From NCBI GenBank assembly GCA_965178125.1, contig OZ237752.1, positions 1,054,001 through 1,117,069 of the forward strand: DNA of 63,069 bases, written 5' to 3'. The DNA comes from Bilabrum cf. latius. Lineage: Eukaryota. Under the pieces are notes generated by a model. The model searched no databases. It was not told the origin of the DNA and saw only the letters and a list, made by a program, of their open reading frames with translations. Below are positions 10,301 through 55,859 of this stretch, piece after piece (the first letter of the stretch is position 1; every line of letters begins with the position of its first letter). The position numbers and the translations under genes are program-made.

Positions 10301-13300
10301 TTGGCTGCTCCTGTGCCAGGTACCGCCATCGTTGGTGTTACTCATTGTGTTCGGCTGCATTGGCAGAAAGCCTGTCGCTCCCTCCGACGCGAAGCAGTCG
10401 CACGAAGGTTTCAATGGTGTTCCAAATGGACATGCCGGCCACGACGCTACCAGATAGTCTGCAGGTGCTGGTCAACCGGCAGCTGGCAGGTCGGTGGCCG
10501 CTGGCAGCGCCGTGGTATACAGACTCGTTGAGGAGGGTGCTCGCGTGCTGCAGGAGGAGGTAGGCATGGGGCAGGACTCGCTCGATGCGTTGGACAGCGT
10601 GTGGGTGGAACTGAGCATGACTGTGTCTGGAGAGCATGGGCGAGCACTTGGCTCGGAGGAAAACGATTCCGCCCCGCGAATCCCGCCATTTGGCTAGCAC
10701 GTTGTGCTGGCCTGCGTCACGGCGGTTCGAAGGGTCGGTCACTTGGCCGCAGCAGCCATCGACAGGATCCTCGACCTTGGCCTTGAGATGAGCAAATTGC
10801 TGGGCGACCAGCTTGGGCTGCCTGGACGCTCCGATCTGGAGTCAGATCTGGTGTTTCGGGCATGTGATGCGGGGTGGAAGCTCGCTGGTATGCTGACCCC
10901 CGTGCTGGTGGTGGAGGAGGTGGGCTTGCAGCGGAAGGAATCTGCGAAGCCAGACGAGATGGCATCCGATCAGGTGTGCAGCTCGTGGCTCCGAAGGATT
11001 GCTGCCGCTTGCAAATTGCGGCTGGAGCGTCCTGAACTGCAATGGCGAGATCCTGGGCAATGGATGCACATAGATATTGCCGGGCTTGCTTGTGTAGACC
11101 CATGGGGACGGGTTCAAGCTCTGCAGTCCGGCGTGCCATAGACTCTCATGCATGTTGTGAGGTAGGATGCATCGTTGGCTCCAGGGTCAAGCTCGGCCTC
11201 GGTGTCACAACCACTCCAATAGAACGGCCACACGGAGGCCGCAAGCGCCAAGCCGAATGCGTGGCTGGTGGGCAGTAGCAATACTGCTCGATGCCTGAGG
11301 ACATTTCTCGGTGAGGAGCAGCAGAGGCTTGCGCTTGCGTCCGGGGGTTCTTTGCAGCCGCTGCCAGTGCAATCGTCGGACTGGGTGGATTGTAGCCATT
11401 CCCTAATGCTGGATAGGAGCATCGCCAGCTTTGCAGATAGCATGGGGCTGCAGTGGGAGGAGCGTGTGAAGCGGCGGCTTCAGTGGATCTAGTCGCGGTG
11501 GGAGCAGGCCGAGGACCAGTTCACGAGAGGGCTGCCCCCCGTGTCTCTGGGCTCACTGCTTGCCCTTGCCTCTTGGCCCCCGGGGGAACTGGTGCCCGAG
11601 TTGCTGGCCGGGAAGGTTCGCCAGCCAGCGATGATGTCGGTTCTGTACGACGAGTTACAGAATGACGACTCGAGTCTGGACCTGGGCAGCATCGTGCCTG
11701 CCTCTTGGATCCCGAGCGATTGTATGCGGGTGCTGCGCTATGCTTTCGATGCGCACATCGCAGCTTCTACTAGCGACCCCGAGATCGGTGGCCTGGCCGC
11801 CCTGGCCCAGTCGTACACATTTGGGGACAAGGCAGTGCCGGCTGAAGCGGAAGGTAGGGAGCATCCAGCCGGATGTCTCGCTGGTGATGAGTGGCTGCGC
11901 TTATTGATGCTCGCGTGGGTGGGCAAGCACGGCCAGCTGCCCGACTGCCAGCTGAGCGGGGCCCCGCTGAGCGCGGCGAGCGGCGTGACCGACGCGAGGC
12001 GCATCCTGTGGGAGGAGGCAGCCGGGGCAGCCATTCTGCTGCAGGACCTGGACGAGTCTGAATCTGAGAACGAGTCCGGTGGAGAAGGTGACTCAGAGCA
12101 CGGGCCCGTGCCGAGTCATGAGCGCACCCGGGTCGATTCGGATCGGAGACCATCCAGGAGGAATTTAGAGGCGTGCGGCGTCCTTCAAGAGAACCGAAGG
12201 GTTGGTCGGTGGTGGGAAATAGTGGACAAGTCAACGCCGATCGTGCCGGTGGGAGATCCTCTGCCTGGTCTCATGGAGGCTCTGCCCGCAGATGCTAGAC
12301 AGCTCGTGGTTGATGCTGCATGGGGCGTAGAGTTTGGAGCGCCGTCCTCTACCGAGCAGCCCAAGATGTCAGACGATCCACACAGCACACAAGAGATTGA
12401 CTAGGTCGCGTCCGCCACAGGCTCAAGCGCGAGTGCAAGTTCACTCTCGCGCTCGAGCCAGAGTGAGCCTGCCCAGGCGTGCAAGTCTCCAGCTCCTGCC
12501 GATGCACCGTTGGGCTCTGGAGCAGACAGCCCCGAGGAGCCATCAAGCTAGCGCGAGAATCAATAGCAAGAGCCCCCCCGGCTCCAGGCTGTTTCGTCCT
12601 GCCACATCCTTCCGCCAGGCAGTGCTCTACGAGAGGATGCCCCTGAGGCACCCATCAGCTCGAAGCGAGCTCGGCGCCTTGAAGACCTGCTCGAGCTGCG
12701 CGGGGAGGGGCTGGTGGGCCGCAGGGTGGTCTTGCGGGGACCGCTGCCAATGCGGCTGACCTCCCTGGGCAAAGAGACCACGGAGGCAAGTGCTTGCGCC
12801 AGGGCGCGGCTTAGAGGAGCCTCAAAGCGGTGCAACTTGAAGGCAGACGGGCCTGTGCCCGGCCCTGGGCTGGACAGCGAATGGGATGCGCGAGACATAT
12901 CCATGGAGCCGTTGATGGCGGACAGGCTGAGGCGCATGGGCCTGGTCAGGCACGACCTGCCGGGGGCCAGGGAGGGTACGAGCCCAGAGTGGTATCGAGG
13001 CAGCTGGACGGAGCCGTGCTGGAGGCAGGCGCAGGTGGAAGCCTATTGCCCCGCGATTGGCATGCACCTGGTTGTGCTTGACGCGGTTGTGCCGCATGCC
13101 GCCGATGAGGGAGAAGAAAAGCGAGATGACGGGTCAATCGATTCAGGTGATGGAACGATGGCGGAGCCAGCACTTGGCAGAAGCAACGATCAGAGTGGCA
13201 CGAACGGAAGTGACATGCAAGGGGCAACTGAGAAACCAGGCCTAGCGACTGGCTGGGGGGCGGTGGACGAGGACTAGCAGCAAGCCATCGCCCTTAGTCT

Positions 13301-16300
13301 AGCTGCCCGCACGTCGACCACGAAGTCCAAATCCACCTCCATCGCTGCTTCGACCGAGCCAGAGTTCGAGTCCTCTTACGGTGGTAGCGCTGCTTGGTTG
13401 GCCGGCTGCAGAAACGTCTTGAAGGAGCCATTGAGCCAACATTGCACTGCCCCCGATCCTCCCGACTACTTCAATCTGGCTGGGGTTGCCTTCCACGCGG
13501 CCCTCGGCGCCGCCAGTCGCCGCATGGATGTGCATGAAAAGATGGCCCGCGTGGCAGACGCAGAGCGCAGGCTCGAGGTAGCACTGGCAATGCGGTCTGC
13601 AGCGGGAAAGCAGCTAGGCCGCGTGTTGAAGAGAGACGCCAAGAGACAGGCTCGAAGGGTGGACCAGTTACAGGGCGGTTCAGCCGCAGGAGCCTTGCGA
13701 GAGTCTGCCGAAGATGAGACCAGTTCGATTTCATTGCCTGGAAACGAAACCAAGGAAGCAGCGAGCGATGGCAGCAGCTTAGGGGGCAAGCGGGCGAGCA
13801 AGCGCAGGCGTGTATCAACCGCGGCGAAACGCCGCCCAAGTGGCTTGCAGCGGGCAGAATTGGCCGTGGAAGAGGCAGTGGCGATGAGTCGCCCGCCCAG
13901 CGAGGTGCAGCTGCGAGAAGCAATGGTGGACCTGTAGGGGTCAGCAGAGATCAGGCGGCTGGCCGATGTGACTGCAGAGTGGGCCTGCGAGCTGCTGGAT
14001 CGACCTGCACGCTCGATGCCCGCTGTTTGGGTGAATCTCCACGCCCTGCTGTGCGCCGCCCCGGGCTTGCTTCCAGTCTCGGCCCCGACCGGTGCGCCGG
14101 TTACGCCGTCCTCCCCATGCTGCCGCGAGGGCATGGATCCATTCAAGGGGCACGACGAGGACACGGAGGACAGGCAGCTGGCCATGATGGCTGCCGCCAG
14201 CGGGACTGCCTCGCTGGCATTTCGGCCTGCGCTGCGTTCTTCCTTGGCTGCCCTCGCCCATGGTCGCGCTGCAGATCTTGAGGCGCGCGAGGACACCGAC
14301 TTTGAAGATGAAGATGACGACACTGAAGGGGCGCAATCATAGACGGCACGTGGCAACCAAGCGCCCTTGCCGGCGAGTTCTAGGCGGCTACTATCCTACA
14401 CGACTCTCTGCGGGGACTACTCGATGGCAGTGCTAGCGGGGGAACGCCCTCTCTTTGGCCTGCAGCAGACGCCCAACACATGCAGGCGCCTGGTGGCGTG
14501 CAGTCGCTGCAAGGACTGGTTCGTGGCAGCATCTCTTGGCCTATCGGCAGCGGCCACTGCGGCTCTAGGTAGCGACTGGCTGTGTCCGTGCTGCGTGGCA
14601 TACGCACAGCGAGGAGCCCTACGTCGCTCTGCTCACCTGTGGCGATTGGGTCTGCTGTGGCAGGGTCACCTGCAGAATGAGAAGGCTTAGTAGGTCCAGT
14701 TGGGATGGGTGCAGCGCAGCCATTTGCAGATTTGGCGGCAAGTAGGCAGCAGCTAGACTGGTGACGCATCTGCTTCCAACAGTACCAGTGCATCGCAACA
14801 TAGCAGCGGGGGGTCTACTGCGCCTGAATCCCCGGCAGCCCCCCGTCCAACAGCTAGCTCTGGTGCAAGTGCCACAAGAGTTGGCACGTTTGGCGCTGTT
14901 GCGGCCGCCCGCGACTTGCACCGACCAGCATCGCCTGCTGGTGTAAGTTCATCGGAGCATTCAGCCGAAACGGGCGACAGCGAATTATCAAGGAATGCAT
15001 TAGAAGACTGCTTGTAGCGCATTGCAGCGCAGGATTTGCACCCTATGGGTGCGGCGCCATGGTTGCCCCCGTTCTGCGGCGCAGATGATCTGCTGTCTGC
15101 CAGCTGCAGGGCGGTGCAGTGGCGGTCCAAGCGGGCGGCATGCGCGCGATCAGACCTACTGTTTTACGCGGCGAAGCACTTGCATCCTTCAACAGTCACC
15201 CGGGTGGTGGCTAGTATGCTTTCGGACCAAGAGCCCTGGCTCCTGCGCCTCGGAGAAGTCCATGCCCGCGAGCAAGGCAGCAGGGGGGCACGGAGACCTG
15301 GCGGCATTGCCGCTGCCGCAGGGTATTCGAGCGGGAACGGTGACGCCCCGTCCCTCTTTTACGTGGATTGCCGGGAGCTGCAATACGATGACATGATGCG
15401 GCAGCTGTTCGGGCCTCCGTCGGCGTGGGGCGATGGGGACCTGGCTGCCGTTGCGGCTGCGGCGACGGCTCTCGCGGGACACCAGGCGCTGGGCCCTCCC
15501 ATTCCCATTGCGCCATATGCTGGCGATAAACTGCGCCGGTCTCTGCTAGAGAGGCGGAGGGTGCGGCACCGGCGGGCTCCGTGGCCAGCGGTCTTGTCGG
15601 ACGGGCCACAATGGGGGAATATCGCAGGCATGCGGCCGGCGGCTGCACGCTACGACGACAGCATGGAATCCAGCCCCGTGTATGCAGTGCATCGCCCTGC
15701 GGTGGCGGTGTCACGCGCAATGCGGGAGTGGATGCGCACCTATGATGGCCGCCGGGAGTTGGCGCGGTGCATCGTGCTAGAGGTCGCTGCCGAGCAGCAA
15801 GCAGTCGTGGAGGCACGGCAGCAGCGTGGAGAACATTCCGCGCAAAACGACAGTCAGCTTGGGCAAAAACGCGTCCGGTTTGATTCAGACGCAACGCCAA
15901 ACGAAGGTGCGGAAGGGCAGGGGCGCCATGCACGGGCGGACGAGCCCAACCCCGGCATCTCAAGCCCTCCCCGTACCCGCTCTGCGCCAGACAGGCGGCA
16001 AGCGGCGGCAGCTGCCAGGGCGGCTGCTCGCGAGAGTGACGTGGGCGCGAGGCGCAGCGTGTAGGCATCTCTGCGGGCGGTGAGGTGCGGCACGAGTCTG
16101 GCAACGAGGGTGCTGCTTCGGTTGCTGCCCCGGTGTATCGAGCGGATGGCTTGGACAGCACCAGACGGCAAGGCGTCATGGCTGGCTGTCGGGGAAGCCA
16201 ACGTGGAGGGAGAGAAATCGGGCGGCAAGTCGGGTCAACCGGGTGCACTCGGGACATCTGGGGGTGGTGAGCCGGGGCGAGGGGTGGTCTACTCGGACCC

Positions 16301-18079
16301 ACAGCGGGTGGCTCGTCGGCAGCTGCGGCTAACCGTGGAGCAAGGCGCGCTTCGCATGGGGAGTCGCACCGCGAGCAGGCGACGGGACGGTGTGGACGGG
16401 GGCGGTGCAGAGGCTGCTTCGGCCCTTGTGGCGCAGGGGGGAGCGGGCCGAGGTGTAGGGGCGGCCGACGCAGAGTATGACGGAGACACGAGCAGGTTGC
16501 AAGCGGCGGTGGAGGACAGCGACTCTGACGACTGGGAGTGGCTTGGGGCAGCTGCACGAGGCAGCTCCTCGCTGCTGTGCACGTGGATGCGGCGCACTCC
16601 CCCGGAGGCAGTCGCTCTGAAGGATCCACCGGTTCCCACTAGGTGGCTGCAGGCTCGTGCAGACGCAACAAGTGAGCCGACCATACCACGCACTAAGGAG
16701 CCATCATCGAGCGTTGCAAGCAGTAGGTAGGTACATAGCCTGCATCGAGCAGGCTGCCAGCTGCCCGCTCTTCATCAGCACTTCTGCATTGAATCAGACA
16801 TGCTGGAGGACGTGCTCGAGTTGGAGAAGCCCGGCGTGGCGCCTTGGTGGGACGATGAGAACAAAGAGGCAGCGGCGCTGTGGAGGGCCAAGGTGAGAGG
16901 CATCGCTGGTCGGGTGGAACAGCAAGATGCTGTAGAATGCAACGACGATTCATCGGTAGGTGATGTGAGCGACGAGAGCATGGAGCAGGGCCTTCAGAGC
17001 AACGCAGCAGCGTCCAGCACCGTGATGAGTTCATCGGCTGCAAGGGTGCGATCTGTCTCAACCCGGTGCTTTCGTGGCCTGGAGGAGCCGTCTCGCGGGG
17101 CAGGCCCCGGTACTGATGCCCCATCCATTGGCACAGTGGCACAGCCCGGCCCCGGCCTTGTGTCCCTGGCTCTGCCTGCCAGCTGGCGGCGGTCTAGTGC
17201 CGACTAGTGGCTGACGGACGAGCCGCGGGCTGCACCGGTGGGCATCGGTGGGAGCCTGGCCGCGACTACGAGTGCGAGCAAGCGGGCAGGACTAGCTGGC
17301 TGGGACAACCCCGCCGAAGCGGCTGCAGTGGCTGAGCAGTGCGCACCGCTGCCGGTGCCTACCTTTACAGTTCGATTGGCGCCCTTTCACCTTGACCGAC
17401 ACTTTGTCCACCAGGTGTTGAAAGACTGGAATTGGCCCACCGAAGAGTGCACGCAAAGTGCTGACGCACTGCTCCGCATGCTGCTGCAGAGCCACGACAG
17501 GCAGGTGGCTGCCAGGCTCTTCCTGCCAGACTGCTCAGGTGCAGATAGCGACGCCCTGGCCGTGCATGCCACGTGCGTCTCCCTGGCACTGGCATTGATG
17601 CCCTACGGAAGCGGTACATTCGACCAATTGGCCCCGCTGTGGCCCCCTGCGGTGCTCATGGTACCCGAGGCAGGGGCGCGCCAGGGAGACGATGCGCCCT
17701 TGGATGGTTGCCGCCAGGTATGGACCGTGTCTCCGCTGCCGTCCAAGCACGCCAACGAGAGACTGCGACAGGTTCAGCGGCCCAGGGGAGCGGCAGAGTG
17801 GCCGTTCCGCGGTCTGGTAGTGCTGCTCCCGCCATGGGTCCAGTTTGCGGGAGCGGAGGCGAAGCGCAAGCAGGTGCCCCTAATTGCTCACGTGATCCCG
17901 CTGCTGCCTCTGGTAGAGCACACGGAGCCGCGGCGGAAGGAAAGCGCCGACCTGCTCGGCGAGAAAGGGGGTCCTGACCCTGCACCGATGGACGGGGAGT
18001 CAACGGGTAGCAGCGGCCCCGGTGCTCATCGTCCCGATGGGTTTTCTTCGGCGTGGCAACCCATGGAAGACAGCCAGTC

Positions 18080-18110
<31 letters not shown>

Positions 18111-19955
18111 AAATGCGGCGTCGGTGGCGATATCGAGGACCATCGTGGGGGTGGCACCGGCGACCTAGATGACGCGGACAGCGACCGCGGCTCGGATACT
18201 TCATCGGTGGTGTTGATCTCGTGTGGACCTAATGCGCCAGTCTCCCCGATTATGGGACTTGGAGCCAACACCGAGGCCTAGAGCCCACCTGTTGGATCGG
18301 CGGGCGGCTCGGGGAAATCTTGCCGCCGCAATAGGCCTGCGAATGGCCAGGCTCGGGCCCTGCGTCTGCTGCAAACCAGCGACGGAGACCCCATGCAAGG
18401 GACCATGCTGGCAGCTATCGCGTAGGCGTGCGCTGACGGGGATCAGGGCGGGCGGCACACGCGAAGCTCCCGGAGGTCCTCCCGGCAAAGCACTCGAAGC
18501 AAGTTGGAGGCACAGAGCGGTGCAAGCGGGCGCACAAATGGCATGCACCAAGGTCTGTCTCCAGCTCCCGAGGCACGTGTGCTTGCCAGCAGCAGCAGCA
18601 GTGGTGGTGGCGGTGGCGGAGGACACGTATCGACCGGACAAATCTTCTTGTGGCCAGAGCTAGCACGAGCCGGTCTGACTCTCGAAGAATCGCTGTCGTG
18701 GGCCGGTGAGGGAGCGGTTGAGTGCGTTCTTGGACCGGTGCGTAGCAACAGCACCAACGGACGAGTAGCATCATCTGCCCGGGCAGCCGATGAAGCGGAT
18801 ATTTAGGCCGCTGCGGAGGCAGAGGCAGCCGCAGCCGCAGCGGCGAGTGAATAGCCGGGGCTGGGGCCCCTCGCTAGTCTGGGCACGTCGCACGTGCTGA
18901 CAGCTGGCCAAGTCTTCGGGCCGCTGTCTCCACAGTTCACACAGAGGAGCAGGAATGGGTCAGTCTCGCGTGAGGCCCTTGCAGAGCTGAAACGGAGGAA
19001 CGCCGCACTCGTCACAGGACCAGGGGGGGCGGCTCCGCTGCCGGGATGCAGCAGGATGCCCGTGTGCACCTCTAGCGAATAGCTGAGCGGCTTGCCTCTG
19101 GCCACGCTGCAGAGCGCGCTGTAGCGGGCCGGGGCCAACCGTGTGGCTCAGGTGGGCAGATCCTACCGGACCAATGGGCTGGCAACCGCCCGACTCGTGA
19201 GACTCGCGGTGAGGGGCAGGCGGCACGGGGTTCGGTGCATCCGGCTGGTCCGCAGCGGCATCGAGGGCTTCGGGGCGGCTGCCGCGCACCCCATGCGCGC
19301 TGGAGACCAGGTGGTGGAGTACAGGGGCGAGGTGGTGCGCATGGCTGCAGGGAACAGGAGGGAAGCCTTCTACGAGAAGGTCGCGCGGGTGGGGTCAGAC
19401 TACATGTTCCGCAACTCGAGGTCTACCGTCCTGGACGCGACTGTGGCGGGATCCGCTGCCCGTTTCCTGAACCACTCGTGCACGCCCAACTGCGGGACTA
19501 GGCTGCTGTCGGGGCCTCCTCCTGCGGCCGCAGCGGTCGCACCCGTCCGCCCAGAAGTGCTTGAGGCGGTGGGCGATGCTGCCGTGGAACGGGCTAGGGA
19601 AGAGTGGAGGGCTGGGCGAGCGGGTGCATCGCACGATGGTACGGAGACAGGTACTTTGCAGGCAGGCGGGGAGGACAGCACAGGGCGGTTGGAGGGTTAG
19701 GGGGAAAGTGCGCCTGCTCTGGGCATGGTGCGCGCGTCGGCGGAGGGAGAGGCTTCGTTCCAGGCCCGCAGCTGGGACAGGACACTGCTGCCCACGGGGG
19801 AGGCTGCTACGCGAGTGCGGATCGACGTCGGGTCTTCCATGGTGCACGCCGGGGAGGAGCTTTGCTACGACTACAAGTTCCCGCTGGAGCACTTTGACAC
19901 CAGGCGGATTACTTGCTGGTGTGGCACACCGCTATGCACTGGGCACATGAACTGA
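7371..19955 (+). CDS. Very large (~4,194 aa) SET1/Trithorax-type histone-lysine N-methyltransferase with C-terminal SET and post-SET domains
   Basis: One continuous frame from ATG 7371 to TGA 19953-55, with ~39 TAGs (manual count) and no TAA/TGA. SET motifs: SGIEGFG, VVEYRGEVVR, YMFR, DAT..GSAARFLNHSCTPNC, ELCYDYKF, post-SET CWCGTPLC. PHD-like CSRCKDWF...WLCPCC near 14500-14595. Confidence 0.85.
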
Positions 19956-20088
19956 GGACAGTGGACAGGGCAATTCCTGGAAAGTTTTCCTGGCTGTGTG
20001 ATGAATGCCAACAAGACAGAATGTGTGTGTGCAGCTTTCCAGCGCTGTACCGATGAGCGGGTACGCACTGCAGTCTTATCCATCAGGA

Positions 20089-21335
20089 ATGGCATCTAGT
20101 AGTAATCCTCCACCTGTGAGATGTCGTAAATTATCACGTAGAGGCCTAGTATTGACTCATTGCCGCTCAGCACAGGTTGCCCACACCTTTGCTCTCTTTT
20201 TTGCAGCCCGTGCAAGCGTCATCTATTCCATCCGATGGTGCTGGCGCAGAAGCACCGGACGAGTCTATGGTAAGAATTAAATGTTCCCGGTACGAGTTAG
20301 CCTGTGCATGCTCACATGAGGGCTGGGGTAATCATCCAACATTCGTTCCTGCCGCAGGAAATGAAGCTGTACGGATACGGTCGCGAGGAAAAGAAGAAAT
20401 GGGACGAGAGATCAGATATCTATGGTATTTTGATAGCGCTTGATGGCTTGGAGGAAGCTTTCATCAATGGAGCATTCGACACGGAGGACAAGAAGCGCGA
20501 ATACGCATCTGTGTGCCAGGACCTTATCAACCAGATGCAGATGAGACAAAGGAACTTGGCCGAGTATAGCAACTCATTTGATGAGTTCATGCGCGCTCAC
20601 AACCTCAAGTGTCCTCACGCACAGCACAGGCTAAGCAAAGGTATCCCAGCGACCGTGGAGATGCGCTCGCAACAGCGATCCGCAGAAAGCCAGCATGGCG
20701 CCCTTGCGTTCTAGACGGGGATCGCCATCGTGGAAGCTCTTGACCGGTTAGAGATGGAAATGATAGACAAGGAGGGGCTATTCACTCCCCTGCAGAACAT
20801 CCTCTCGCTGTTGAACCGAATGTCGAACTTGCCGGCCGACTTCGGCCCAGTGGCCACAATGCAGCAGTGGGTCACCACCGTGAACCAAATGAGCATCAGC
20901 GCGCAGCTTACGGAGGACCAGAAGCGGCAGCTCAAACTTGACCTCAGCGAAGCGCAGCGCACGCTACAGGAGTTCCTGTAGCGCAGCGACAGCAGCGGGG
21001 GAGGGGGGGGGGCTAGGAGCGGGCGCCCGATGGCACCGCCAGCTTCGGGCACTGCGGGCGGGCATCGACCGGCCCCCATATCTTCCCATGGAGGCGGCGT
21101 GCTTGCAGGGGCACTCGGTACCTCGCCTAGGCCGGCGCCATCAACCACACCATCGGCACCGTCGACTGGGGCAGGAGCAGGAGCAGGGGCAGGAGCAGGA
21201 GCAGGAGCAGGAGCAGGGGCAGGAGCAGGGGCAGGAGCAGGAGCTGCCTCCGCTGCGCCTGCGTAGACGTTTGGGGCAGGAGGGATGGGCACCAGTGGCA
21301 CCGGCCCATCGCGTCCACTGTTCCATGGGTTTTGA
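20089..21335 (+). CDS. VPS28: ESCRT-I subunit VPS28 with a Gly/Ala-rich C-terminal extension
   Basis: Motifs EMKLY...LEEAFI, CPHAQHRL..GIPATVE, ALDRLEM, RMSNLPADF, MSISAQLTEDQKRQLKLDL. Predicted introns 20116-20206 and 20270-20357 (GT..AG). In-frame TAG at 20712, 20979 and 21264; TGA at 21333. Confidence 0.88.
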
Positions 21336-21407
21336 TGGATGATGTGTACAGAACCGATGACGCATTTCTATCTGCTGCACGCAAACCAGTGACCATTTTG
21401 CTGCTGT

Positions 21408-23459: not shown

Positions 23460-24089
23460 GAGCGGCCCGGTGCATCCGATGCCGGTGCAAGCATGGCTGT
23501 TGGCTGAAAAACTTCGCTCAGGTACTAGTAGCCGCTACGGAATACTTCTGATCAGTATTTTGTTCGCTAGCGTGCACAAAATAACAAAAAAGTACCCGCA
23601 GTGATCGCTCATACCGGCGTTCCTCTTATCGTTTCACTCACACTCCAGCTGTCATCCAGACGCCGACTGTCGACCCGCTAGCCGCATCTCCTGGCATTAT
23701 GCTGCCAGTAGTGTATATAATAAACTTCCTCAGAATATAAAATATACCGTATCGATACCTGCACCGGTTTTCGAGGAGCTTTGTCACTTCATCCGGCGAA
23801 TCTTGTTTAATGGTTGCCGATGCTGTTTTGCACGCAACAAAACGAAAGACCCGTTTGGCCTTTCAAAAGGCAATAGGTCAGCCGAAGAAAGCATTTGGCC
23901 CTATTTGACCTTAGTCGTCATATCAAAATGCATAAAACCTCCTCAATGTAAGAGAAACGTACCGAATGTGCCCATATATGATGTAGCATTCGAGTATCGC
24001 AAGTTGTAGACTGCAACTCCTTTGCTACCGCGTAAATTTTTGCCATATCCTCAAGCAGGAGACGTTCTAGTAGTCGCAATAATGGGGGC

Positions 24090-28956: not shown

Positions 28957-29113
28957 ATTAACAAGTGTTTAAAGCTAAGAAAAACTTGCTGTTCGGTGTC
29001 TTCAGTGCGTGGCGGCAGCCTGGTTCTCCTTGATTTGAGACTGGTGATTGCGTGTCATTTGCCGGAAACCAGACCTGTTGGCCAGCCTGTTCACGCCTCA
29101 AAACCACCCAACC

Positions 29114-30642: not shown

Positions 30643-31948
30643 ATGTCGGCTTACGATGACGATGAAAATCCTTGGGCTGATCCAAGCCCTTCTTCTTAGG
30701 CGCCGGGTCCCGCAGCCCAAGGAGCAAACGCTCCCCAGGCTGGGAGCTCGCAAGACGAATCCGGAGGTTTCGGGGAGGGAATGGGCGGAGTGTCTGAAGC
30801 TGTCGGAGACGCGGCCACAGTCGTTGGTGCAGGTATTACAACAGCGTGAGGGTTGCATTTAGCTTTGCCTGATGCGCTGCCTCCCAGTATAGATCGGAAT
30901 GCGTTTGCGGGTATGCCTCTCGTAGGTTGCCACTCCTTGCTACTCGGTCCGTGCTGCGCCAGTTGGTACTATTCATTGACCTTGTACTGCCTAGATTTGA
31001 ATCTTTCTGGCACCCTGCACCTCTGGCTCTATGCCCCGCAGAGTTGCTGCGATCCCGTATGTTTGGGTCCTGTGGCTGCTCCGCATCTTAAATTTTATCA
31101 ATGGAGGATTGCTGGTTTGGGGTTGCTACCAGGCCTTCTAGATCCTTGGCACCGGCGGTGGCGTCATTACGCGCTCATTCTTGGCACTGTATCTAGGACT
31201 GTTCGGCCTGCTTCTCGTCATCTTCGAGCTTCGAGTCGGCTTCATTGAGAGCTTCATTAAGAAGAGGTTTGGGTTCATGTTCAACCATACGGGCCGTTTG
31301 ATGTACCTTATTTTCGTCGGCGCGATTGGCTTCGGCATCCTAGATGACAGCAACAAGGACACGACGGGCCGCAGCTGGGTGACTGGCATCTGCGTCACTA
31401 CACTGGGCAACGCGGTCATCAACATGACGATCATGTGCTTCCACCCGGCATTTGCTAATCAGGACAAGTCTGGCGAGCCTTCAGAGGAGCAGCTGGAGGC
31501 ATACCTGGCCAAGCACCCGGAGGTCGCGCAGAAAGCCGCGCAGGGAGACGCGGGCGAGGCAGCCGTGGCGGTGGCAGCCAGCGCACGGCAGCCCCACGTC
31601 CGCTCCTCAAGGGGGGGAGGGGGGCGGGGAGGGGCCGCCGCACCGGCCGAGGCTGGGGGGTACACACCACCAGTAGTCAAGTCGGAGCCTGCCGCCGTGC
31701 CCTTCGATTCCTTCGGCCAGTCCATGGGCGGCTCCTCCGGGCAGTCGGCCTCAGCCACGCCTGCTGCAGGCCCCGTGGACGTGGACGACATTGACCCATT
31801 CAGCGCATCGGCACCGGCGCCCGCGCCTGCACCCGCCCCCGCGCCGGCACCGGCACCGGCACCGGCACCCGCCGCGTCTGCCGCCGCCCCCGCTGCTGAT
31901 GATGACGATGATGTGGACAACCCCTTCGCGGATAGCAGCGCGTTCTGA
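30643..31948 (+). CDS. TVP15/COPI-associated-type Golgi membrane protein with Pro/Ala-rich tail
   Basis: Motifs LRILNFING, YLGLFGLLLVIFEL, FGFMFNHTGRLMYLIFVG, and terminal NPF. One or more introns between ~30835 and ~31040. In-frame TAGs at 30697 and ~31139; TGA stop. Confidence 0.7.
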
Positions 31949-32186: not shown

Positions 32187-33155
32187 TCACATAGCATCGG
32201 GGTCCACTGGCAGCTGCAGCTAAGCTTCCACCGGCAAGTGCCTTGGGGTGTCGAACCACGATGGGGCGTGCTCGGTGCTGGCCCGCGAGTGGCCCTCTGC
32301 CGCAGCAGCGGGTCGCACCTCCACTGTGTCACCCTGTCGAAGCGGCAGCGGCACTGCGTCCACACCAGAGACAGAGGCCTTGCGCTGCACAGAAAAGTAA
32401 GGGCATATCCTCTGAATGGGAGGGTCGCCATTCGACTACCACGACGTGAGGTAAGGGGGGACCACCAGGTCGATCACGAGGGCTCCTGGACTGCACCTGT
32501 CAGTGGAGGCATCCTTCCCTGCATCTGCACTGCTGCTTGCCATAAGACTAGGCGTCGCCGCGGAATCCGCTCGCAGCGTTGTGCTGTGGAACTTGGGTGG
32601 CTCGCAGGCAGCAAACACGCTCTGGCTGTGGCTCTAATCCGGGTGAAGAGCCATGAATTCATGGATATTACGGGTCTGAGGCTCAAGCCAGGTCCAGCCC
32701 GAAGGACCGAGGACAGATGTGCCATGGAATGACGCCACTGGACCCCGCTATGGTATTCTGTAGGCTAGCTCGGGTCGTATTCTCTCGGCATCAAGAAAGT
32801 CAAATGAAGCAACTGCTAGGTTTCCTGAAAGTACTTTTGTGAATACAGTCTGGTTTGGATGTCCATGCAGCGGGAGCCGTGCGCCCGCAGCTAGGTAGAA
32901 AGCGGCTATATCAAAGAGCCCACTGGGATCCTAGTACACCGGGAGATAGTGGCATCGTCCCACGAACTTAAATTGGTCCCAATCAACCCCATCAAGCTCG
33001 CTGAATATTGAGACGAGCTTTGAAGACGGACCACTTGCAATATCGTCTTGCACCGTGTCCAGAGCTCGCTACCAATGCATTGATTTGCCAGCCGCTGAGC
33101 TCAACAAGCCTCGCACGCCCTTAATCACGCATTGGATGCGCTATAAAGCTGCCAT
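32187..33155 (-). CDS. Thiol dioxygenase of the cysteamine dioxygenase (ADO) / plant cysteine oxidase (PCO) family, ~322 aa
   Basis: Manual translation with TAG as X: MAALXRI...HYLPVYXD..FDIAAFYL.....LPLHGHPNQTVFTKVLSG....SFDF...EPQTRNIHEFMA...IDLVVPPY...RICPYF. The three-His metal site is present. Seven TAGs; TGA at 32187. Only a 60-aa fragment appears in the ORF track. Confidence 0.85.
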
Positions 33156-33308: not shown

Positions 33309-36300
33309 TTAGCTTTTAAAGGCAACAGCGCCAGCCACAATAGCCACCAGAGTTGCCAGCCCAGCCACACCCTCAGCCTGCAGTCCGCTCACTGACCCCT
33401 TGGAAGCAACCTCCACCTGCTCAACCTGGGTGGCCCAATGAAACCCACCCCGTATAGCCGATTCCAGTAGTACTCCGACCCTAGACGCAGCTGCATCTGC
33501 ATGAGACTCCGCCCACTGCACCGCCACCCCGATGGCAGATCTAGCCCCTCCCTCCCGGCCCAGCGCCAGCACCTCTGGCAGGCCCTCCCTGGGTGCCACA
33601 GAGCCTTTGCCCAGCAGCCGCAGGGCCTACTCCGCTGCTTTCTTACTCGGAATGATCCCCGCCTCTTGTCCACCACTCCTTCCCTCCCCATCCGAGCCTG
33701 CACTGCCAAGCACACGTCTGGCCGAGACCTGCAGTCTCCCGAGAAGCCAAGCCCCCCGCTGAGACGCGCCCCCCGTAAACTCGGATACGTCCTCTCGGGA
33801 CAGCATTTCCTGGGCCTGCTTCCACCTGGTGGGCAGGTTGAGCAGCACCAGACACGCCCCCACTGCAGCCGCCGCCTGCCTCGGGGCCTTGCCCAAAGCA
33901 CCCAGGCTGGCGACAGCTGCTGGGGACACCAGCCCGCCCCATGTGACTGCCAGTGCACATGCCAAGCACTCATCCGACACGCCATCGGGGGGAGATACGG
34001 GAGGACTAACTCTATTCGTAGCTGCGGTAGACAGCTCGGGTGCAAGGGGTGCTTCGAGGCGACCTTGCCCCACCTTGGCTTCAGCCTGCACAGCAGCGAG
34101 GGCTCCTGCCTCCCAAGGCGCTTGCATACCGTGCCGCTGCAAGTGAGGGGACATATGGACAAGTGCAGCATCGACTGCTGCTGCCATGCCAAGCCGAATG
34201 TCTCTGGTCTCGGGCCCACCTGCTGCTTTGGCCACGTGCTCATCAGCAGGGATCATGTCCTCGACCCCGGCTGCCCTATCACTGTGCTTGCGGCGAAGAG
34301 CCTGCCACACCCGCCCGGGCCCTTTATCTAGAGCCAGTTTCATTGCCTTCTCGGCTCGGCCCGGCGCAAATCCAAAGTAGAAGAGTAGCACCCTCCCAAG
34401 AGCGAGCCTGTCAGACAGCTGCTGCAGAGACGGGCCCCGTGGTGTACTGCTGTCTTTCGAGGACTCGCCTGGCCGCTTGTCGACTGGTTCGTTTGTGCCT
34501 TCCATGGAGGTGCCTGCGGATGGCTATGCTGCCATGGCTTGCTCCTTCCCAGCGATCGACCCTTCTTTAGTTGCCCGCGCTGGGCTGCCATCGCTGCCAT
34601 CCGCCTCCAAGCCAGATGCTCCTGTCTGCGCTGGGCTAGCATCGCTGCCATCCGCCTCCAAGCCAGATGCTCCTGTCTGCGCTGGGCTGCCATCGCTGCC
34701 ATCCGCCTCCAAGCCAGATGCTCCTGTCTGCGCTGGGCTGCCATCGCTGCCATCCGCCTCCAAGCCAGATGCTCCTGTCTGCGCTGGGCTGCCATCGCTG
34801 CCATCCGCCTCCAAGCCAGATGCTCCTGTCTGCGCTGGGCTGCCACCACTGCCATCCGCCTCCAAGCCAGATGCTCCTGCGTACGGAACCTGTATGGGTG
34901 ATGAAGCTGCATTCTTCTGGATGCCGGAGGAGACAGACTCCACGTGACTCATCTTTGCGACCAATTCACGCGTCGGTGGCTCGCGAACGATGCCTCCATT
35001 TGATGCTAGCCCGCATGCAGCAGCTACGGCCCCTTGTCCAACTGTGCCGCTGTCCATCTCTATAGCCTGCCTATGCCACACCTGAGCTGCTCTATCCGCC
35101 GCCGCTCGCCACACATCCATCTCTCGGCCCTTGGACTCGCTAATGCTTCGTTGCTTCCTCGCGAGCGCTGGCCACAGCTTTGGGCCGTGCTTTGCCCACA
35201 TCGAAACCGCCTTGGAGCATGCCTTCGACCAGTGCTGGCGACTGGCAGCGGCCAGTTCTGTCGAGTTGCCGGCCGCGGGTGTTGGTCTGTTGAGCACGTT
35301 AGTGAGCGCGCATGTCAGGGCAGCTTTGCTCGCGAGCGACAACCAGTCCCGCCGGGCCATAACGACAGGGTGGGCCTTCCGCAGTGCCTCAGACAGCTGG
35401 ACGTCTCGATCCTGCTCGTGTGCGGGGCGAGCGCTGGATGAGACATCGTCGTCCTCCTGTCCGGGAATGGTCACATTGGCCAGGAGATACAGCCGGGGGG
35501 ATTTCGGAATAGCCAATAGCAGAGACGAAGGGTCCGAATCGATATCGACGTCCACAGCCCGCCAGTGCTTTGGGTCCGCGAAACGGGCGCGTGGCACCGC
35601 CACAGCAACCCCCTCAGCAGTGGAAGGCTCTATACCCGAAACAAATTGTCCTTTGCGATCACCACTTCTCTTGGCTGGCTTGTCAGATCGATCGCTGGGG
35701 CTGGTTTCCGCAGGCTTGGTGCTTGCAGACTGACCACCATGACTTGCATCCCCCCTAGGCTCGATGCTAGCATCAGACGCACCTGCCGACCCTGCGCTCT
35801 CGATGGCACCCTCGCCACTCATTTGCTCCACAACATCAGACCTGGCTCGAGATTCGGTCAGATCTGCAGGATCTGCAGCATCAGAAACAGGCTCTCCGGT
35901 CCCATTTGCTGCATTGGAGTCGGCCTCTGCGGCTTCTCTCGAACCCAATTGCTCCGCGGGCTCAGACCCACCAGGTGCACCGGGCCTGTTGTCCACTAAA
36001 GCCTTTTGGTCGGTGCCGACAGCGTCAGCTCCGACCCCATTGCTAGCCCTCTCCTCGTGCACTTCACTCTATTGTTCAGGCGCTGTGCTATCTGCGCCTC
36101 TATGCTGCCCTTGGGAGCTTGCTGTACTGACCGACAACGCTCCAGCATGTTCCAAGTTTCGCAAACCCATGTGAATCGCTGATTTACCTCCGTTGTCGTG
36201 CTGACTCCCAGTCGCGCCTTGGTTCTGGAGGGACTTGGCCCGCCCCATCGGGTCGTGCGCAGGACTCCCACTGGCCTTATCGGACCCCAATTCCTCGTAC

Positions 36301-39206
36301 GATAACTCAGATGCACCAGGTGGTCGCCGCATTGACGGAGCCGAGATGAAGTCGCCGTGCAGATGGGCAGAGGAGGCGCTGCTGCTGGAGATGTTCATCT
36401 CCGTCTGCTGGTCATGGGCAGATGTTGGCCTAGATCCTGGCCTGGACGGCCCTCTCGATCCTGGCCTGGATCCTGGCCTGGATGGTCCCCTAGACCCTGG
36501 CCTCGATCCTCCCCTTGAGCTGCTCCTCGACCTTCCAGCGAACGGACTGGCCATCGCTGCCCCTGGCAGAGCCTCTATACTTCCTGCAACTGGACCTCGG
36601 CTCTTTGGTCTCAATGACGTCCCCGAGATAGGATACAATCCTGCCTTAGGCGCTGGGGTTTCACTCGCCTGCAACGAAGGCTACGATGCTGCTTCCACCC
36701 GTGACCCGGCTATGAGGTGCCCGGCGGGCATTTCTCGCTTGGCGTTGTCGTGCTATGTGTCGACTGCCAGGGCATGCTCTGCACCCCTCTCGCCTATGGC
36801 TGTCTTCTCCTGGTCGCTTTTTGCCTCGGATAAACGCCGCGAGTTGAGCTAATTGATCGATGCAGACTCTGCCTGATTCGCAGATATGTCTGACTTGTCC
36901 CCAGCTTGCTCCATTGGCTTTGACCGACCCACTTCCTAGCCATCCAATCCCAGCCGATCCGCAGAGGGCATCTCGCCCGAGGCAAGAAGTGACGGCTTTA
37001 CCTCGCGTTGCTGCTCGCCCTGTGCATGAGCGGCCCTGCGTCGGCTTGTAGATTGCTTGGAGACTGCAACGGGGAGCACCTGCCGCTCAACGAATCGGCG
37101 CACGCTGGGATCATGCCTGACGGCCTCTTCTAGCTGAGGGAGAAATCCCAGCGGAGCAGGCACCGATTTAACCTGCACTTCGGGTGTCCCACCTTGCGCC
37201 TACCTATGCCCGCGAGTTGCCTTTGTCTTCGACTATGGCGTCTCTACAGATGCAGATGCCCCATTGGGAGTGTCTGTGGCAAGGACGCTACCAATTCTAG
37301 CTGCAGGCCCACGCGGGCCCAAGACGGCATTTGCTCCACCGCGACCGCGCGTACCCATAGACACAGCCCGCAGGGGTCGCTGCGTGCCAGGCGCAGAGGC
37401 TGCACGAGCTGGTGCGCGGATCTCGATCGGTTCGATGCGGGCGTCGAGGCCCTTGCGCAGGGCGGGTGGTGTCGCTCCAGCAGGCTCGTGCTGAGCAGGT
37501 GGCGCTCTTTCCGGCGACCTCAAGCGCGCGGGGTTAGCTCCCCCAGGTGTCCCGCCGGCTCTGCCTGCCCTCGACTTAGGCTTACTCCCCTTGCGCCGCC
37601 GAGAGCCAGACCGCACCTTCTGCGCCCATGGCCTGTCCCGCCGCTTGCCCACCCCGCCCTAGGCCGCCGTCCGCGCTCGAACCCGCACTGGGCTCCGCAG
37701 CACAGATCGACCTCTGCGGGTGCCTAGCCTTGCTCCGTCTTTCAGCGGAGAGGATGCGATAGACTCTGCCAGTCCGCCGCGATGCCTGCCCAGCGCTGAC
37801 ATGCTCTGTTGGTTGCGGTCCAGTGCCGGCTTCTCGCGCGTGCTTGACCTGGACCGACTCGGGCCGCGAGCTCGCCCGCCTCCTCGCACGCGCTGGCCGT
37901 GGATGCTGCTAAGCCTGCCTCTTTCCGTGGGCCCCAGCGACAATCCGCCGTCCGACTCCCGCAGCGGAGACGCCGCGCCCCACGATACCGCCAGTGCTTT
38001 GATGCTGTCCTGCTGCATGGCGGCCCTGGCGTCACCTTCCGCACCTGCCACGTCACCGACGGGACTGTATGCGCGCCGCTAAGCGTGTTTCGAGCAATCG
38101 GACGCATCTGTCACAACGCCCTGTGGGCTACCTACGCCGCTAGCGAGAGCGCGGTGCCGCCGCGCTGCTGCTGCTGCAGGCTGGTGAGCGGTGGCGGCGC
38201 GGCGGTGCTCCGAGCTGTCTCTGCGCCTGACTCTAGCCCTGCCGATTGTGGATTCCGCGCGCCGCCCTCTGCTCCGCCCCCGCTGCTTGGCATGGCCGCG
38301 CCTAGGCTGCCTTCGCATTGGCGACATTGCCTGCCTCCTGCTAGCCGGCTCTGATATCGGCGGCAGCCGCGCGACTGGCGCCGGAGACCCCCTCCGATTG
38401 GTCCTTCTAGTGGATGCTCCGTGTCCCCTCCCCTTAGTGCCGCCCATCTCACGGTTCTTCCTGCCCTCTGTAGCAACAGAAGCAAGCTGCCCCTGCCCCT
38501 GCCCACCCGCTCCAGGTAAACCCCTGCGAGCCATCGTTCTGCCGCGAGATGCATGCCCAGCCCCTGGCTGCGCGGCCCCCCTGCTATTCCCGCCCTCCAT
38601 GATACGTCGCACGAGGGCAGGGTCGTCAGGCAACTTGCCCAGCGCATCCAACCGGGCCAGCTCCTGCTGCTGCTGCTCGCGGTGCCGACGCACCTTCTTC
38701 TGCCGCTGCAGCCCACGAAGCATGCGTCGCACTGCTGCTTTTTCAGCTGCCTGTTCCCTTCTTCTCTCTGCGTCGAGTTTCTTCCGCAGCCTGCGCGCTT
38801 GCTGCTTGCGCTCCCGCATCATCGCAAGGGCTGCCTGCTCCTGCTGGTCCGCTCGTTGCTGGGCTTGCTCGGCCTATCGCTTTCGGCGTGCCTCTTTTGC
38901 CGCAAGCCAGGCGGAAAAGTCATCGCCAGAGCTATTAGCATGCGTGTTCGACTGACTTTCCCCGCTTGTACCGGTTGCGCTGTCCAATTTCTCATTTGGA
39001 GTGTGGTAGTCGCGTTCCGCTGCTGCTAGCTGCCTGTCTGAAGATCGGCCCGACTCTGGCGATTTTGTCTCTGCATGGGGTCCATCCTTCTGGAAATTAT
39101 CCAATGCTTTGGTGCGGTCGGGTGATGAAGACTAGAACGCAGCTTCTTTCTCCCCGTGAGGACTCTTCTGCTCGCCGGCTTCCAGCGAAGCTCCCTCTCG
39201 TGACAT
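33309..39206 (-). CDS. Large (~1,965 aa) low-complexity/coiled-coil protein of unknown function with C-terminal hydrophobic anchor
   Basis: Nine ORF-track pieces (33309, 33627, 34524, 36069, 36936, 37233, 37659, 38079, 38874) share one frame, joined only by TAG. ATG at 39206, TAA stop at 33309. No family recognised. Confidence 0.75.
34577..34880 (-). repeat. Coding tandem repeat, 51-bp unit, ~6 copies (AQTGASGLEADGSDGSP)
   Basis: Near-identical repeats directly visible in the DNA and in the 34524-36062 translation. Confidence 0.95.
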
Positions 39207-39651
39207 CGTTCTGCCAACTTCAAAACTGCCCAGGCCAAACGATCTAGTATATTAGCACCTTACTGTGTGCATCTTCAAGCCCAACCACCGAAAATCTCTT
39301 TCGAGAGAGCGAAGAAATCGATGAGGCTCGGTGTTCAACGGCACTTCCACGGGAAATCCTTTGCAATCAAACAACTGCTTGCTTAACGGTAAATTTTACT
39401 CGCTTACGATATCTGATTGCTCAAATTGTCGGTATTTTGAAAGACGATAGCGTAGTTGGCGCCCGTATGAGCACCCGTGCCGCCGTCGCGGTGGGAATTC
39501 GGAACAAAATTCACAGTGCCGTTTGCTTGGCCTTCCGGTGCACCATTCAAAGGGTATCTTGGTGTATCAGCCTCTGAGTTACACAGTTGCAATAATAAGC
39601 CTCTGTAGTTTGGGATTTTGCCCTCGGCAGCGAAAAGAGGGCTTGCCAGCT

Positions 39652-40170
39652 ATGCCACGGTCTTCGTCTCACGTTGTGATCCCACTTCGATTCGTGTTGA
39701 CCATGCTTCACTTTATTGCAACAATTTTGGTTTTCTCACAAAGGGTAAGGGCTGCGTTTCATCTTGATAAAATCTCGATTGGGCGGAATCAGGGGCTATC
39801 GTGATTGCACGCCCACTTGAATTTTTGTTTTGCGCAGGACACGAATATCCGGGCATCCCTTGCACTGGCAGCGAGTCAAGATGAATACTCGAGGGTAGAT
39901 TCATCGTTGCAGGGTGCTTGGGCCCTCGCCTTGATCTCCGCGGGTCTCTGCTTTCTTGGATAGTTCGGAGGATTCACGACGTTCATGCCGGGCGTCAACG
40001 CCTTGCAAATCGTCTTGCAGGCATTCGGGGGAGTGTTAACATCTTTGTTTATTTTAGACGGCTGGAGTGTTGCCGCGTACTGGTGGGTGGTCGTGTTTTT
40101 TTCGGTGCTGCCAGGCATTCTGGAATCGGCGCTCATTGGTGGCGTCGGTTTCAACATGGTGCAGTACTAA
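39652..40170 (+). CDS. TMEM107: Ciliary transition-zone protein TMEM107
   Basis: Motifs VIPLRFVLTMLHF, RDTNIRASL, EYSRVD, GXFGGFTTF, LFILDGW...YWWV.VFFSVLP..LE. Intron 39745-39837; TAG at 39961; TAA stop at 40168. Confidence 0.85.
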
Positions 40171-40235: not shown

Positions 40236-42151
40236 TTAGCCAGGGCGGCCAGCTTGCACGCGCCTTCCCCTCCCAGCTCCCAGCTGCGGCCCGCTCCCAG
40301 CTCCCCGCGCGAACCCCAGCCCGGGGTCGCCGCCCCCTTGGTACTGCTACTAGCCCACGGTGCGACCCTTAGCGCCGCTGCTTGCCCTTGGGGCAGATGC
40401 CCTCGACCCACCACCCGCTCCGCCGACCACCATGGGATTGGCCCCGGCAAACTCCTGCGCGGGAGACCCGCCTCGCCTCGTCTGCGGCAGCGAGCTGGGG
40501 CCGTGCCTGACCCTGCCGTTCGCCATCGCCCCGGCACCTTGTCCGTTCTACTCGAACGGTCGCCTGGCGTGCGGCAGCTCCAGCTCAGCAGGAGGCGATG
40601 CAGCAGCTGCGAGCGCAAGCGGAGACATGTGAGCCTGTCGCTGCGAAGGGAGTCTCTTGTCTCCCTGTCCCCGTGGCCTGCTCTTGCTCCTGCTCCTGCC
40701 CCGCCCCTTGACTCGAGGGCTAGGTGGGGGCGTGCTCACGATGCTCACATCCAGGCCGTCGGGGCCCACGGCTCGACGGACTATCTCTAGGGGCTCAGGC
40801 GCATCGGGGCTGCTGCCCCACCCCGCCTGGACCCGCCCTTCCCCAGAGCTGGTGCCAGTCCCCGCCTCCCCCAGCTCACCGGCCTCTTCCTCTCGCACTG
40901 CCGACAGCTTGCCCCTCACCGGGCCGAGCCCACCCTCCTCGCTGCCCTAGTCCTGGCCAGTATACGCAGTGCGCTACGCCCCCGTCCTACCAGATGCCCC
41001 CCGCCCGCCATGCGCTGCACCTGCCTTACCACTCCTGGCCCCCCGACCCCCTGCCTCCTCCCACTCTTCGTGCTGCAGCCGCTACTTGCGCACGAAGCGC
41101 GCAGGCAACTTATCCAGCCTATCCTTCTTCTCCTAACCGTCCCGCGTGATAACGGCCCGCAATCTGTCGAACTCCAGCAGCTCTCGATCGACCAGCCACG
41201 AGCTGATGCACAGCGCCAGCGCAAGAGCCAGCCGACTGCCACCGACCAGGTAGGGCGCCACCCAGTCGCTGGGAGTCGCCAGCCAGCTGGCCGTGTGGAA
41301 TCCGGCAGCCAGTAGCAGGGCGCCCCATAGAGTTATGCTCGTGTTGACGATTTCAATAGCCACATTGGTGCCATAGGACCACAAGGCTGCGCCCACGTAG
41401 AGCATGAGCGAGCAGTGCAGCAGCTCGGGGACAAGGTCCGCGAAGTCATCCAGGGTGAAGGGCGCCCGCTGGAATACTTCCTTGTAAGGTAATCTACCAG
41501 AGAGAAAGCGGTCTGCCCTTGTCGGCTCGTCAGGCTCCCGAATGGCCGGAGCATTCGCCACGAGGGCGAGCATGGCCAGCAGCGCGCAGATGATCCACAC
41601 GCTGTACCTGGAAAAATGGTCCCACCAAGAGGAATTTCTCCTGTGCTAATCCTGCAGGGTAATATAGAAAAAGATAAAACAGCATACCGGCGGGGTGTAT
41701 CACAGTGTTGAGTCGTATAGCCGCAGGTTAAGCTGGTTGGCTGACTCACTCTAAACCGGATTATGCAGCAGAACTTCTTCGCCTACCACTTGTGCACTTC
41801 GTATGCTATTTCAAAGGCGCAAATTAATGTCAGGGGCACCACGAGGGACGCAATGAAGAAGCGCCCCATGCGGAATCCAGCCAGAGCAGCGGGACTGCCG
41901 GTAGCCCCGTCCTCTAAGACCTCTGCATCCAGCCCAATAATCAAAAACTCAAAGGCTAGGAACAGCAATAGTATCGGCATCAATACGAAGCCAGCATTTG
42001 CTGCACGCTTGCAAGTTATGAATATTTGACCAACGAATGCAACGAGAGCAACCGACATGTAGACAAAAAATGGCCAGGCTGTCGCGCTTGCATAAAGCAG
42101 CTCCTATGTGGCATTGCTGGGTGATGAGCTACTGGAACTATTCGCGTCCAT
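40236..42151 (-). CDS. Multi-pass membrane protein of unknown function with low-complexity C-terminal tail
   Basis: ATG 42151; several hydrophobic helices; intron 41652-41749 (GTGAGT..CTGCAG) restores the frame; many in-frame TAGs; ends TAA-TAA-TGA at 40238-40230. Confidence 0.7.
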
Positions 42152-55845: not shown

Positions 55846-55859
55846 TTTAGGGGGGGGGG

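Follow-up and report, generated by a model that had tools for sequence, protein, structure and literature searches.

Probable reassignment of UAG from stop to glutamine in the GC-rich nuclear genome of Bilabrum cf. latius

In-frame TAG codons in the window and its transcripts

The meaning of the codon UAG was analysed in a 63,069-bp stretch of DNA from Bilabrum cf. latius (positions 1,054,001-1,117,069 of contig OZ237752.1, assembly GCA_965178125.1), which is referred to in its whole length as the window and has a guanine-plus-cytosine (GC) content of about 61%. The window holds a kinesin gene, a giant SET-domain protein gene, VPS28, a PP2C phosphatase, an ADO/PCO-like dioxygenase and further genes in which TAG occurs in frame (Table 1); its GT-AG introns are short, and a block of tandem repeats lies towards its end.

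Stop-to-stop open reading frames (ORFs) were compared over the whole window under five code hypotheses. The longest ORFs measure 943, 597 and 568 amino acids under the standard code and 4197, 1981, 1706 and 1243 amino acids when TAG is taken as sense. Taking TAA or TGA as sense instead gives longest ORFs of 957 and 943 amino acids, neither of which is comparable to the effect of TAG. Since only TAG as sense lengthens the ORFs, we counted this result for TAG being a sense codon.

The coding set comprises 18 coding segments from the whole window, with 14,964 codons. In frame it contains 116 TAG and neither TAA nor TGA, which corresponds to a TAG density of 0.8% of codons and to about 17% of the Gln codons (116/686), while the two off-frames of the same segments together contain 223 TAG, 75 TAA and 449 TGA. 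From the off-frame density, 37 in-frame TAA codons are expected per frame in the window and 25 in the orthologous genes of the diverged relative L002 described below; none was observed in either. The 16 terminators inside the window are TGA in 14 cases and TAA in two, TAG being needed as a terminator in none of them.

The range 12549-40352 contains 64 of the in-frame TAG codons. All the strings that a sequence-only reading of this DNA had quoted from it are present, in frame in long ORFs: CAA-TAG-CAA at 12561-12569 on the plus strand, TAG-CAG-TAG at 22253-22245 and TAG-TAG-CAG-TAC-CAA at 40352-40338 on the minus strand, TAG-CAG-CAA at 13275, TAG-CAA at 29696 and 29774, and TAG at 12549. Here 33141 and 23073 are the low (plus-strand) coordinates of minus-strand TAGs, and 39961 is a plus-strand TAG. 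When Pfam was run with TAG masked as X, the kinesin, VPS28, PP2C, PCO_ADO, COPI_assoc, aldehyde dehydrogenase/ProA and TMEM107 domains extended across TAG. Pfam also recognises the WD40 protein, eIF2-beta (28191-28805), RACK1 (42421-43458), a Cdc6/ORC1-like protein, a glutamate-receptor-like protein and the SET domain.

Contigs from four public runs were aligned to positions 3650-23649 of the window. Those of X5 and X6 display no differences from the window and contain the spliced GT..AG joints 6880>6972, 20115>20207, 20268>20357 and 22931>23061; the second and third correspond to introns of VPS28, and the last, CT..AC as numbered here and GT..AG in minus-strand orientation, is the PP2C joint, present in X10 as well. 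About 1,957 differences from the window were counted in this comparison, which also includes contigs of the X8 and X10 relatives. The run records list no RNA, and it is because of the spliced joints alone that we take the X5, X6 and X10 contigs to be RNA-derived. Over 23061-23415, which covers PP2C exon 1 with TAG 23151 and 23073, the X5 and X6 contigs contain no other letters, and TAG 20712 and 20979 of VPS28 are likewise unchanged in spliced contigs (X6 record 17 spans 20357-20999 with no other letters). As TAG is unchanged in spliced contigs, it is present in the messenger RNA, and RNA editing is excluded for the sites in PP2C exon 1 and VPS28.

The X5, X6 and X7 data sets carry other organism names (labels B and C), yet their spliced contigs are identical to the window. 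The window organism may be present in them through co-culture, association or contamination; alternatively, B and C may be synonymous labels.

TAG sites in relatives and the assignment of glutamine

Three metagenome loci (L001-L003) are at least 99.96% identical to each other and were counted as one organism. L002 (17.4 kb, GC 0.564) displays the gene order of the window (kinesin, the 5326-7167 gene, the SET giant, VPS28) at 38-64% protein identity. Its four orthologues contain 68 in-frame TAG, no TAA and no TGA in 5,395 codons, a TAG density of 1.3%, and TAG makes up about 28% of their Gln codons. The three complete orthologues terminate at the same residue as the window genes, followed by TGA. 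Thus the 5326-7167 gene, 64% identical to L002 1617-3251 on the minus strand, ends at the same place in both with TGA, and both SET proteins end ...TGHMN-TGA. The L002 SET orthologue (3737-17323, 4038 codons) uses 53 TAG vs 76 CAG and 56 CAA, and the window SET gene 39 TAG vs 117 CAG and 63 CAA. Judged from these two sequences, the UAG reassignment is common to the window organism and its diverged relative.

Using a word-based protein search, we also found fragments from close relatives (P0001, P0002, P0003 and P0006), which had been predicted under the standard code. Gln stands at TAG 20979 and 21264 of VPS28 in P0001, at TAG 13935 of the SET protein in P0003 (which has T at 14340), and at TAG 32436 of the ADO-like protein in P0006, in a fully conserved stretch; P0006 has H at 32634, in a poorly conserved one. 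Of the nine window TAG sites covered by close relatives, four have Gln (binomial p 2e-4 vs 3.8%), and the other five have V, W, E, T and H. P0003 and P0006 stop immediately before a window TAG (32220 in the case of P0006), and P0001 begins a few codons after one, which is expected of a standard-code gene caller if TAG is conserved at those sites.

The evidence that carries the assignment comes from the four window-L002 orthologue pairs, which were aligned with TAG masked; every column with TAG on either side was collected (n=78), and local identity was taken over the 20 flanking positions, with cut-offs of 0.5 and 0.6. The partner is Gln in 21 of all 78 columns. At an identity of at least 0.5, the 28 columns contain Q 15 times, E three times, L twice, TAG once, and S, A, I, K, P, T and R once each, and at 0.6 or above Q is found in 10 of 17, against a Gln background of 3.2% in the L002 alignment columns. 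Examples from the SET gene are window TAG 11490 (CAG in L002), 18423 (CAA), 16062 and 14691 (both GAG), 14688 (ATT) and 18852 (CCC). In the 5326-7167 gene the window TAG pairs with CTG, and the L002 TAGs pair with window CAG, CAG and GAG. TAG is found in both species at only 2 of the 78 columns, VPS28 TAG 20712 being TAG in L002 too, which indicates that TAG sites turn over quickly.

A likelihood was calculated with per-amino-acid substitution rows built from the same four-gene alignments. At identity 0.5 the ln-likelihood is -54.6 for Gln, -85.3 for the background, -90.8 for Glu and -91.7 for His, placing Gln 36 units above Glu; Leu and Ser are outside the best eight. In agreement with this ranking, TAG pairs with 19 of 166 Gln sites vs 19 of 4516 sites of the other residues combined (odds ratio 30.6, Fisher p 2e-18), and at identity 0.5 with 15 of 128 vs 12 of 3477. 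The odds ratio ranges over 31-38 for the two sets, and the next highest rate of TAG pairing for a single residue is 1.3%. The 19 Gln partner codons are CAG in 13 cases and CAA in six, and CAG-TAG pairs (13) are as frequent as CAG-CAA pairs (13). Considering that CAA is two changes away from TAG, these numbers imply a signal at the amino-acid level and not just the proximity of C and T. The rate at which TAG columns pair with Gln, 0.56, agrees with the conservation of Gln itself at the same identity level, 0.44.

These comparisons support the proposal of the sequence-only reading that Gln fits UAG better than Leu or Glu, and its own arguments for Gln are weaker than it stated. Its observation that TAG sits beside Gln codons is real (14 of 228 immediate neighbours, 6.1%), close to the rate at which Gln neighbours itself (6.6%). 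The excess over the 3.8% background is weak (binomial p 0.055), and a likelihood based on the neighbour-residue profile of TAG singles out no amino acid. It had also placed TAG at Gln or other polar positions of homologues. The columns at ADO 32931 and in ProA are indeed polar, the former dominated by Glu, and none is Gln-specific. TAG 33141, proposed as the Gln of an N-terminal ADO/PCO helix, is covered by none of the 149 aligned ADO homologues, and TAG 23073, proposed as a Q/K site of PP2C, by none of five printed PDB alignments. ADO TAG 32748 falls in a mixed column among distant homologues. More generally, the PDB alignments mostly end before the TAG positions or say little of them. The homologue search for VPS28 was swamped by its low-complexity tail (8000 candidates, one match), and that for TMEM107 gave no match.

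We consider it highly probable that UAG has been reassigned from stop to Gln in this nuclear genome, and that UGA, the main stop, and UAA still terminate translation. TAG stands in frame throughout conserved, transcribed genes, and in the orthologue alignments its exchanges with CAG and CAA are those expected between synonymous codons for Gln. Decoding would be carried out by a dedicated tRNA-Gln with anticodon CUA, and an eRF1 with lost or weakened recognition of UAG may act alongside it. A tRNA-Gln(CUG) is one anticodon change away from CUA, and a CUA tRNA is unable to read UAA. One study predicts for UAG-only codes the same combination of a CUA-anticodon tRNA and an eRF1 losing its affinity for UAG, and describes for Iotanema eRF1 substitutions at positions in contact with the third-position G of UAG, such as the Thr of the N-domain motif GTS (PMC5304391).

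Several observations weigh against this assignment. Among the well-aligned TAG columns 13 of 28 are not Gln (L twice, E three times), although this is about the number predicted from Gln's own conservation of 0.44. Apart from the nine close-relative sites, the orthologue evidence is that of one relative and four genes. P0002 has V, W and E at TAG 19080, 19122 and 19698 of the SET protein. Distant homologues show no preference for Gln: the column of ADO TAG 32931 contains E 41, S 20, D 9 and Q 1 of 108 residues (149 aligned homologues), the ProA TAG column reads D, K, K, T and R in five printed PDB alignments, PP2C TAG 23151 lies opposite T or E in the PP2C structures of the PDB (E in PPM1A), and the TAG of the kinesin motor domain aligns to T of KIF13B in five of five printed alignments. 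These columns are polar and tolerable for Gln, yet would not have identified it. ARAGORN found no tRNA gene in the window or in L001-L003, so that the decoder tRNA is unseen there; Rfam gave no match in the window at gathering thresholds; and eRF1 is not in the window. The lack of in-frame TAA partly follows from the way the ORFs were delimited, an objection that is softened because the orthologues are equal in extent and have the same C-termini. UAA as a true stop is based on two window ORFs, whose C-termini were compared with no orthologue.

Alternative readings and relation to known codes

The alternative that survives best, which we regard as improbable, is that UAG is dual or leaky, read as Gln in genes by a dedicated tRNA or by the near-cognate tRNA-Gln(CUG) and acting elsewhere as a context-dependent stop, as in the ambiguous codes of the Condylostoma/karyorelict type. 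In VPS28, the Pfam domain and the PDB homologues stop exactly at TAG 20979, just where a stop would be usual. However, past this TAG the tail displays in-frame conservation with whole-codon indels and the common end ...PLF(H/P)GF-TGA in P0001 and L002, and P0001 has Gln at the TAG itself. Given that the tail and its last residues are kept in both relatives, the VPS28 tail appears to be translated, as far as sequence conservation can tell. TAG 32220, where P0006 ends, is 10 codons ahead of the ADO terminator, which would also suit a dual role, as would the decoder tRNA not seen in the window or L001-L003. On the other side, no terminator in the window needs TAG, and at the TAG densities of the window and L002 frequent termination would be very costly.

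The highly conserved housekeeping genes RACK1 and eIF2-beta, which contain no TAG, can be placed on the side of a dual meaning too; their lack of TAG would also fit a minor role of TAG among the Gln codons, perhaps with lower efficiency. The long low-complexity proteins of the window contain about one TAG per 100 codons. A dual stop and sense role of UAG is left with no positive support.

That UAG encodes glutamate, like UAR in peritrich ciliates and Blastocrithidia, is very unlikely. Glu dominates the ADO column at 32931 (41/108), is the partner, as GAG, in 3 of the 28 well-aligned columns, and is found at one P0002 site and in PPM1A at PP2C 23151. In the orthologue comparison, however, TAG pairs with 3 of 319 Glu sites vs 19 of 166 Gln sites, in line with the likelihoods given above. 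At this identity level 0.69 of Glu sites are conserved, so that far more Glu partners than 3 in 28 columns would be expected for a Glu codon.

We give even less credence to leucine, the meaning of UAG in the uncultured rhizarian exLh and some phyllopharyngean ciliates, or to serine, as reported for Scotinosphaera. The hydrophobic contexts at 13275 and at TMEM107 39961 suit Leu, and CTG is the partner in 2 of the 28 columns. The sequence-only reading had found Leu the better fit at both sites, but neither stands as evidence for it; at the first, part of a UIM-like motif, L002 has TAG as well, and the UIM-like residues downstream are not conserved there. TAG pairs with 3 of 489 Leu sites and 2 of 371 Ser sites vs 19 of 166 for Gln, neither residue is near the top of the likelihood ranking, and 0.82 of Leu sites are conserved, so that mostly Leu partners would be expected for a Leu codon. 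The remaining alternative, that the in-frame TAGs are untranslated (pseudogenes, assembly errors, or RNA editing to CAG), has a negligible probability: nothing was found in its favour, and it is refuted, as far as the present data reach, by 116 TAG vs no TAA and no TGA in the same frames, by frames kept over 4,000 codons in L002 with its own 53 TAGs at mostly different sites, and by the spliced contigs of two runs, which retain TAG with no differences from the DNA.

Reading UAG, and not UAA, as Gln is a kind of code already known, to which the window organism adds a member. In NCBI translation table 15, TAG alone is read as Gln. Nuclear codes with this UAG-only change are described for the fornicate Iotanema spirale (PMC5304391) and, among ciliates, for Protocruzia tuzeti and two lineages of phyllopharyngeans (PMC11687900). 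As in these organisms, UAG would be Gln with UAA kept as a stop, and the predicted tRNA-Gln(CUA) mechanism would fit. A difference is that the main terminator in the window is UGA (14/16) and not UAA. In contrast to ciliate-type genomes, the window is a 63-kb multi-gene contig with spliceosomal introns, TTAGGG arrays in place of ciliate-type repeats and 61% GC, and it encodes an oxygen-dependent ADO/PCO-type dioxygenase and the ciliary protein TMEM107, which do not suggest an anaerobic fornicate. An ESM Atlas comparison of RACK1 and eIF2-beta led only to broad eukaryotic clusters.

Both UAR codons are read as Gln in many ciliates, ulvophycean green algae, Hexamita, Streblomastix and the aphelid Amoeboaphelidium protococcarum (PMC11687900, PMC6299283). 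The amino acid and the likely origin of the decoder, an anticodon change in tRNA-Gln, are the same as proposed here. Unlike in those codes, TAA is never in frame (14,964 + 5,395 codons) and two window ORFs end with it. A UAR-to-Gln code (table 6 type) was rejected on this absence and because reading TAA as sense opens no gene. Amoeboaphelidium, for which both TAG and TAA are reported as Gln (PMC6299283), has genomes of 40% GC (PMC10608142, Table 1); it was ruled out by this value vs 61% in the window. Other UAG-only reassignments are to Leu in the rhizarian exLh (PMC5304391) and to Ser in Scotinosphaera (as cited in PMC11687900). The window resembles these in that UAG and UAA have come apart in a nuclear genome outside the ciliates. 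It differs in the amino acid, since the orthologue columns reject Leu and Ser here.

No published UAG-only Gln code from a GC-rich organism outside the ciliates turned up in a literature search with most subscription journals and supplements outside its range. We tentatively suggest, with somewhat more doubt than confidence, an independent and undescribed origin of such a code in a GC-rich, non-ciliate, aerobic, cilium-bearing lineage with at least three diverged members, all carrying the reassignment. Its members would be the window organism, the X8 relative, about 10% diverged at the DNA level, and the L001-L003 relative, with 38-64% protein identity; as all three carry the reassignment, it would be old within the clade. 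If true, the capture of UAG from stop to Gln needs no AT-rich background of the kind found in most known cases, and TAG has come to supply 17-28% of the Gln codons.

Few nuclear codes give UAG and UAA different meanings, those named in one paper being Iotanema, Protocruzia, some phyllopharyngeans, a rhizarian and Scotinosphaera (PMC11687900). A further clade, with GC-rich and ordinary chromosomes, would be a point of comparison for the uncoupling of UAG and UAA at the level of tRNA and eRF1, and at least one of its members appears to have genome and RNA data. Annotating this genome or those of its relatives with the standard code splits genes into pieces, and translation with TAG as Gln is advisable; the database entries P0001-P0006 from relatives are pieces of this kind, with a start or an end at TAG.

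Gene content and the repeat block

Table 1. Genes and ORFs of the window with in-frame TAG codons (positions within the window)
Feature	Position	Strand	Description
Kinesin-3-like motor, runs off the window end	1..5118	-	13 TAG, one within the motor domain; Pfam Kinesin E 1.9e-66
Conserved gene without family	5326..7167	-	91-nt intron (6880>6972); 3 TAG
Giant SET-domain protein ORF	7365..19955	+	4196 codons, 39 TAG, ends TGA; open only with TAG as sense
VPS28 last exon	20355..21335	+	TAG at 20712, 20979, 21264; ends TGA; Pfam E 3e-36
PP2C phosphatase	21411..23360	-	Exons 23360-23061 and 22931-21411, 129-nt intron; 9 TAG including 23151, 23073, 22251, 22245
WD40-repeat protein ORF	24352..28080	+	1242 codons, 3 TAG (24823, 25639, 26530)
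Tim17-like membrane protein ORF	29111..30238	+	6 TAG including 29696, 29774 (each TAG-CAA); Pfam Tim17 weak, E 0.0033, below cut-off
COPI-associated protein	31031..31948	+	1 TAG (31139); Pfam PF08507 E 6.5e-8
ADO/PCO-like thiol dioxygenase	32190..33155	-	7 TAG: 33141, 33069, 32931, 32748, 32634, 32436, 32220; Pfam PCO_ADO E 1.2e-14
ORF without Pfam family	33312..39251	-	1980 codons, 13 TAG, ends TAA
TMEM107 exon	39805..40170	+	1 TAG at 39961; Pfam PF14995 E 7.4e-21 over aa 9-109, across TAG
ORF without family	40239..41699	-	487 codons, 8 TAG including tandem TAG-TAG 40352-40347; ends TAA
Gamma-glutamyl phosphate reductase (ProA)	47210..48727	+	1 TAG; best PDB match 1vlu E 7e-112

The SET match of the giant ORF is located at amino acids 3968-4046, and TAG 12549, 12564 and 13275 fall in this same ORF. 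Between 17657 and 18323 of the gene the summed contig depth rises 20- to 100-fold in all four runs, with loose ends around 18080-18110 and 18587-18620; the spike arises where Glu/Asp-rich repeats make the SET protein acidic and low in complexity, which draws unrelated contigs, and does not reflect copy number. The C-terminal extension of VPS28 (20979-21335) consists of about 117 low-complexity codons, starts at TAG and includes a (Gly-Ala)n run. Pfam matches were obtained for both exon pieces of the PP2C phosphatase (E 8e-47 and 7e-9). The best PDB matches of the kinesin are KIF13B and KIF1A, which makes it kinesin-3-like, and in its C-terminal part an FHA-like stretch was recognised by eye only, unreported by Pfam at E 0.001.

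A tandem-repeat block occupies 51462-59810, where the GC content drops to about 0.51. It harbors four internal TTAGGG/GGGTTA arrays (52705-53164, 53892-54276, 55004-55388 and 55857-56532) of 64-113 copies each at 99-100% match. A 155-bp satellite alternates with these telomere-type arrays, and on either side lie a 46-bp array (51462-52653) and a 22-bp array (58283-59810). The block may be subtelomeric or interstitial, or may mark a join in the assembly.

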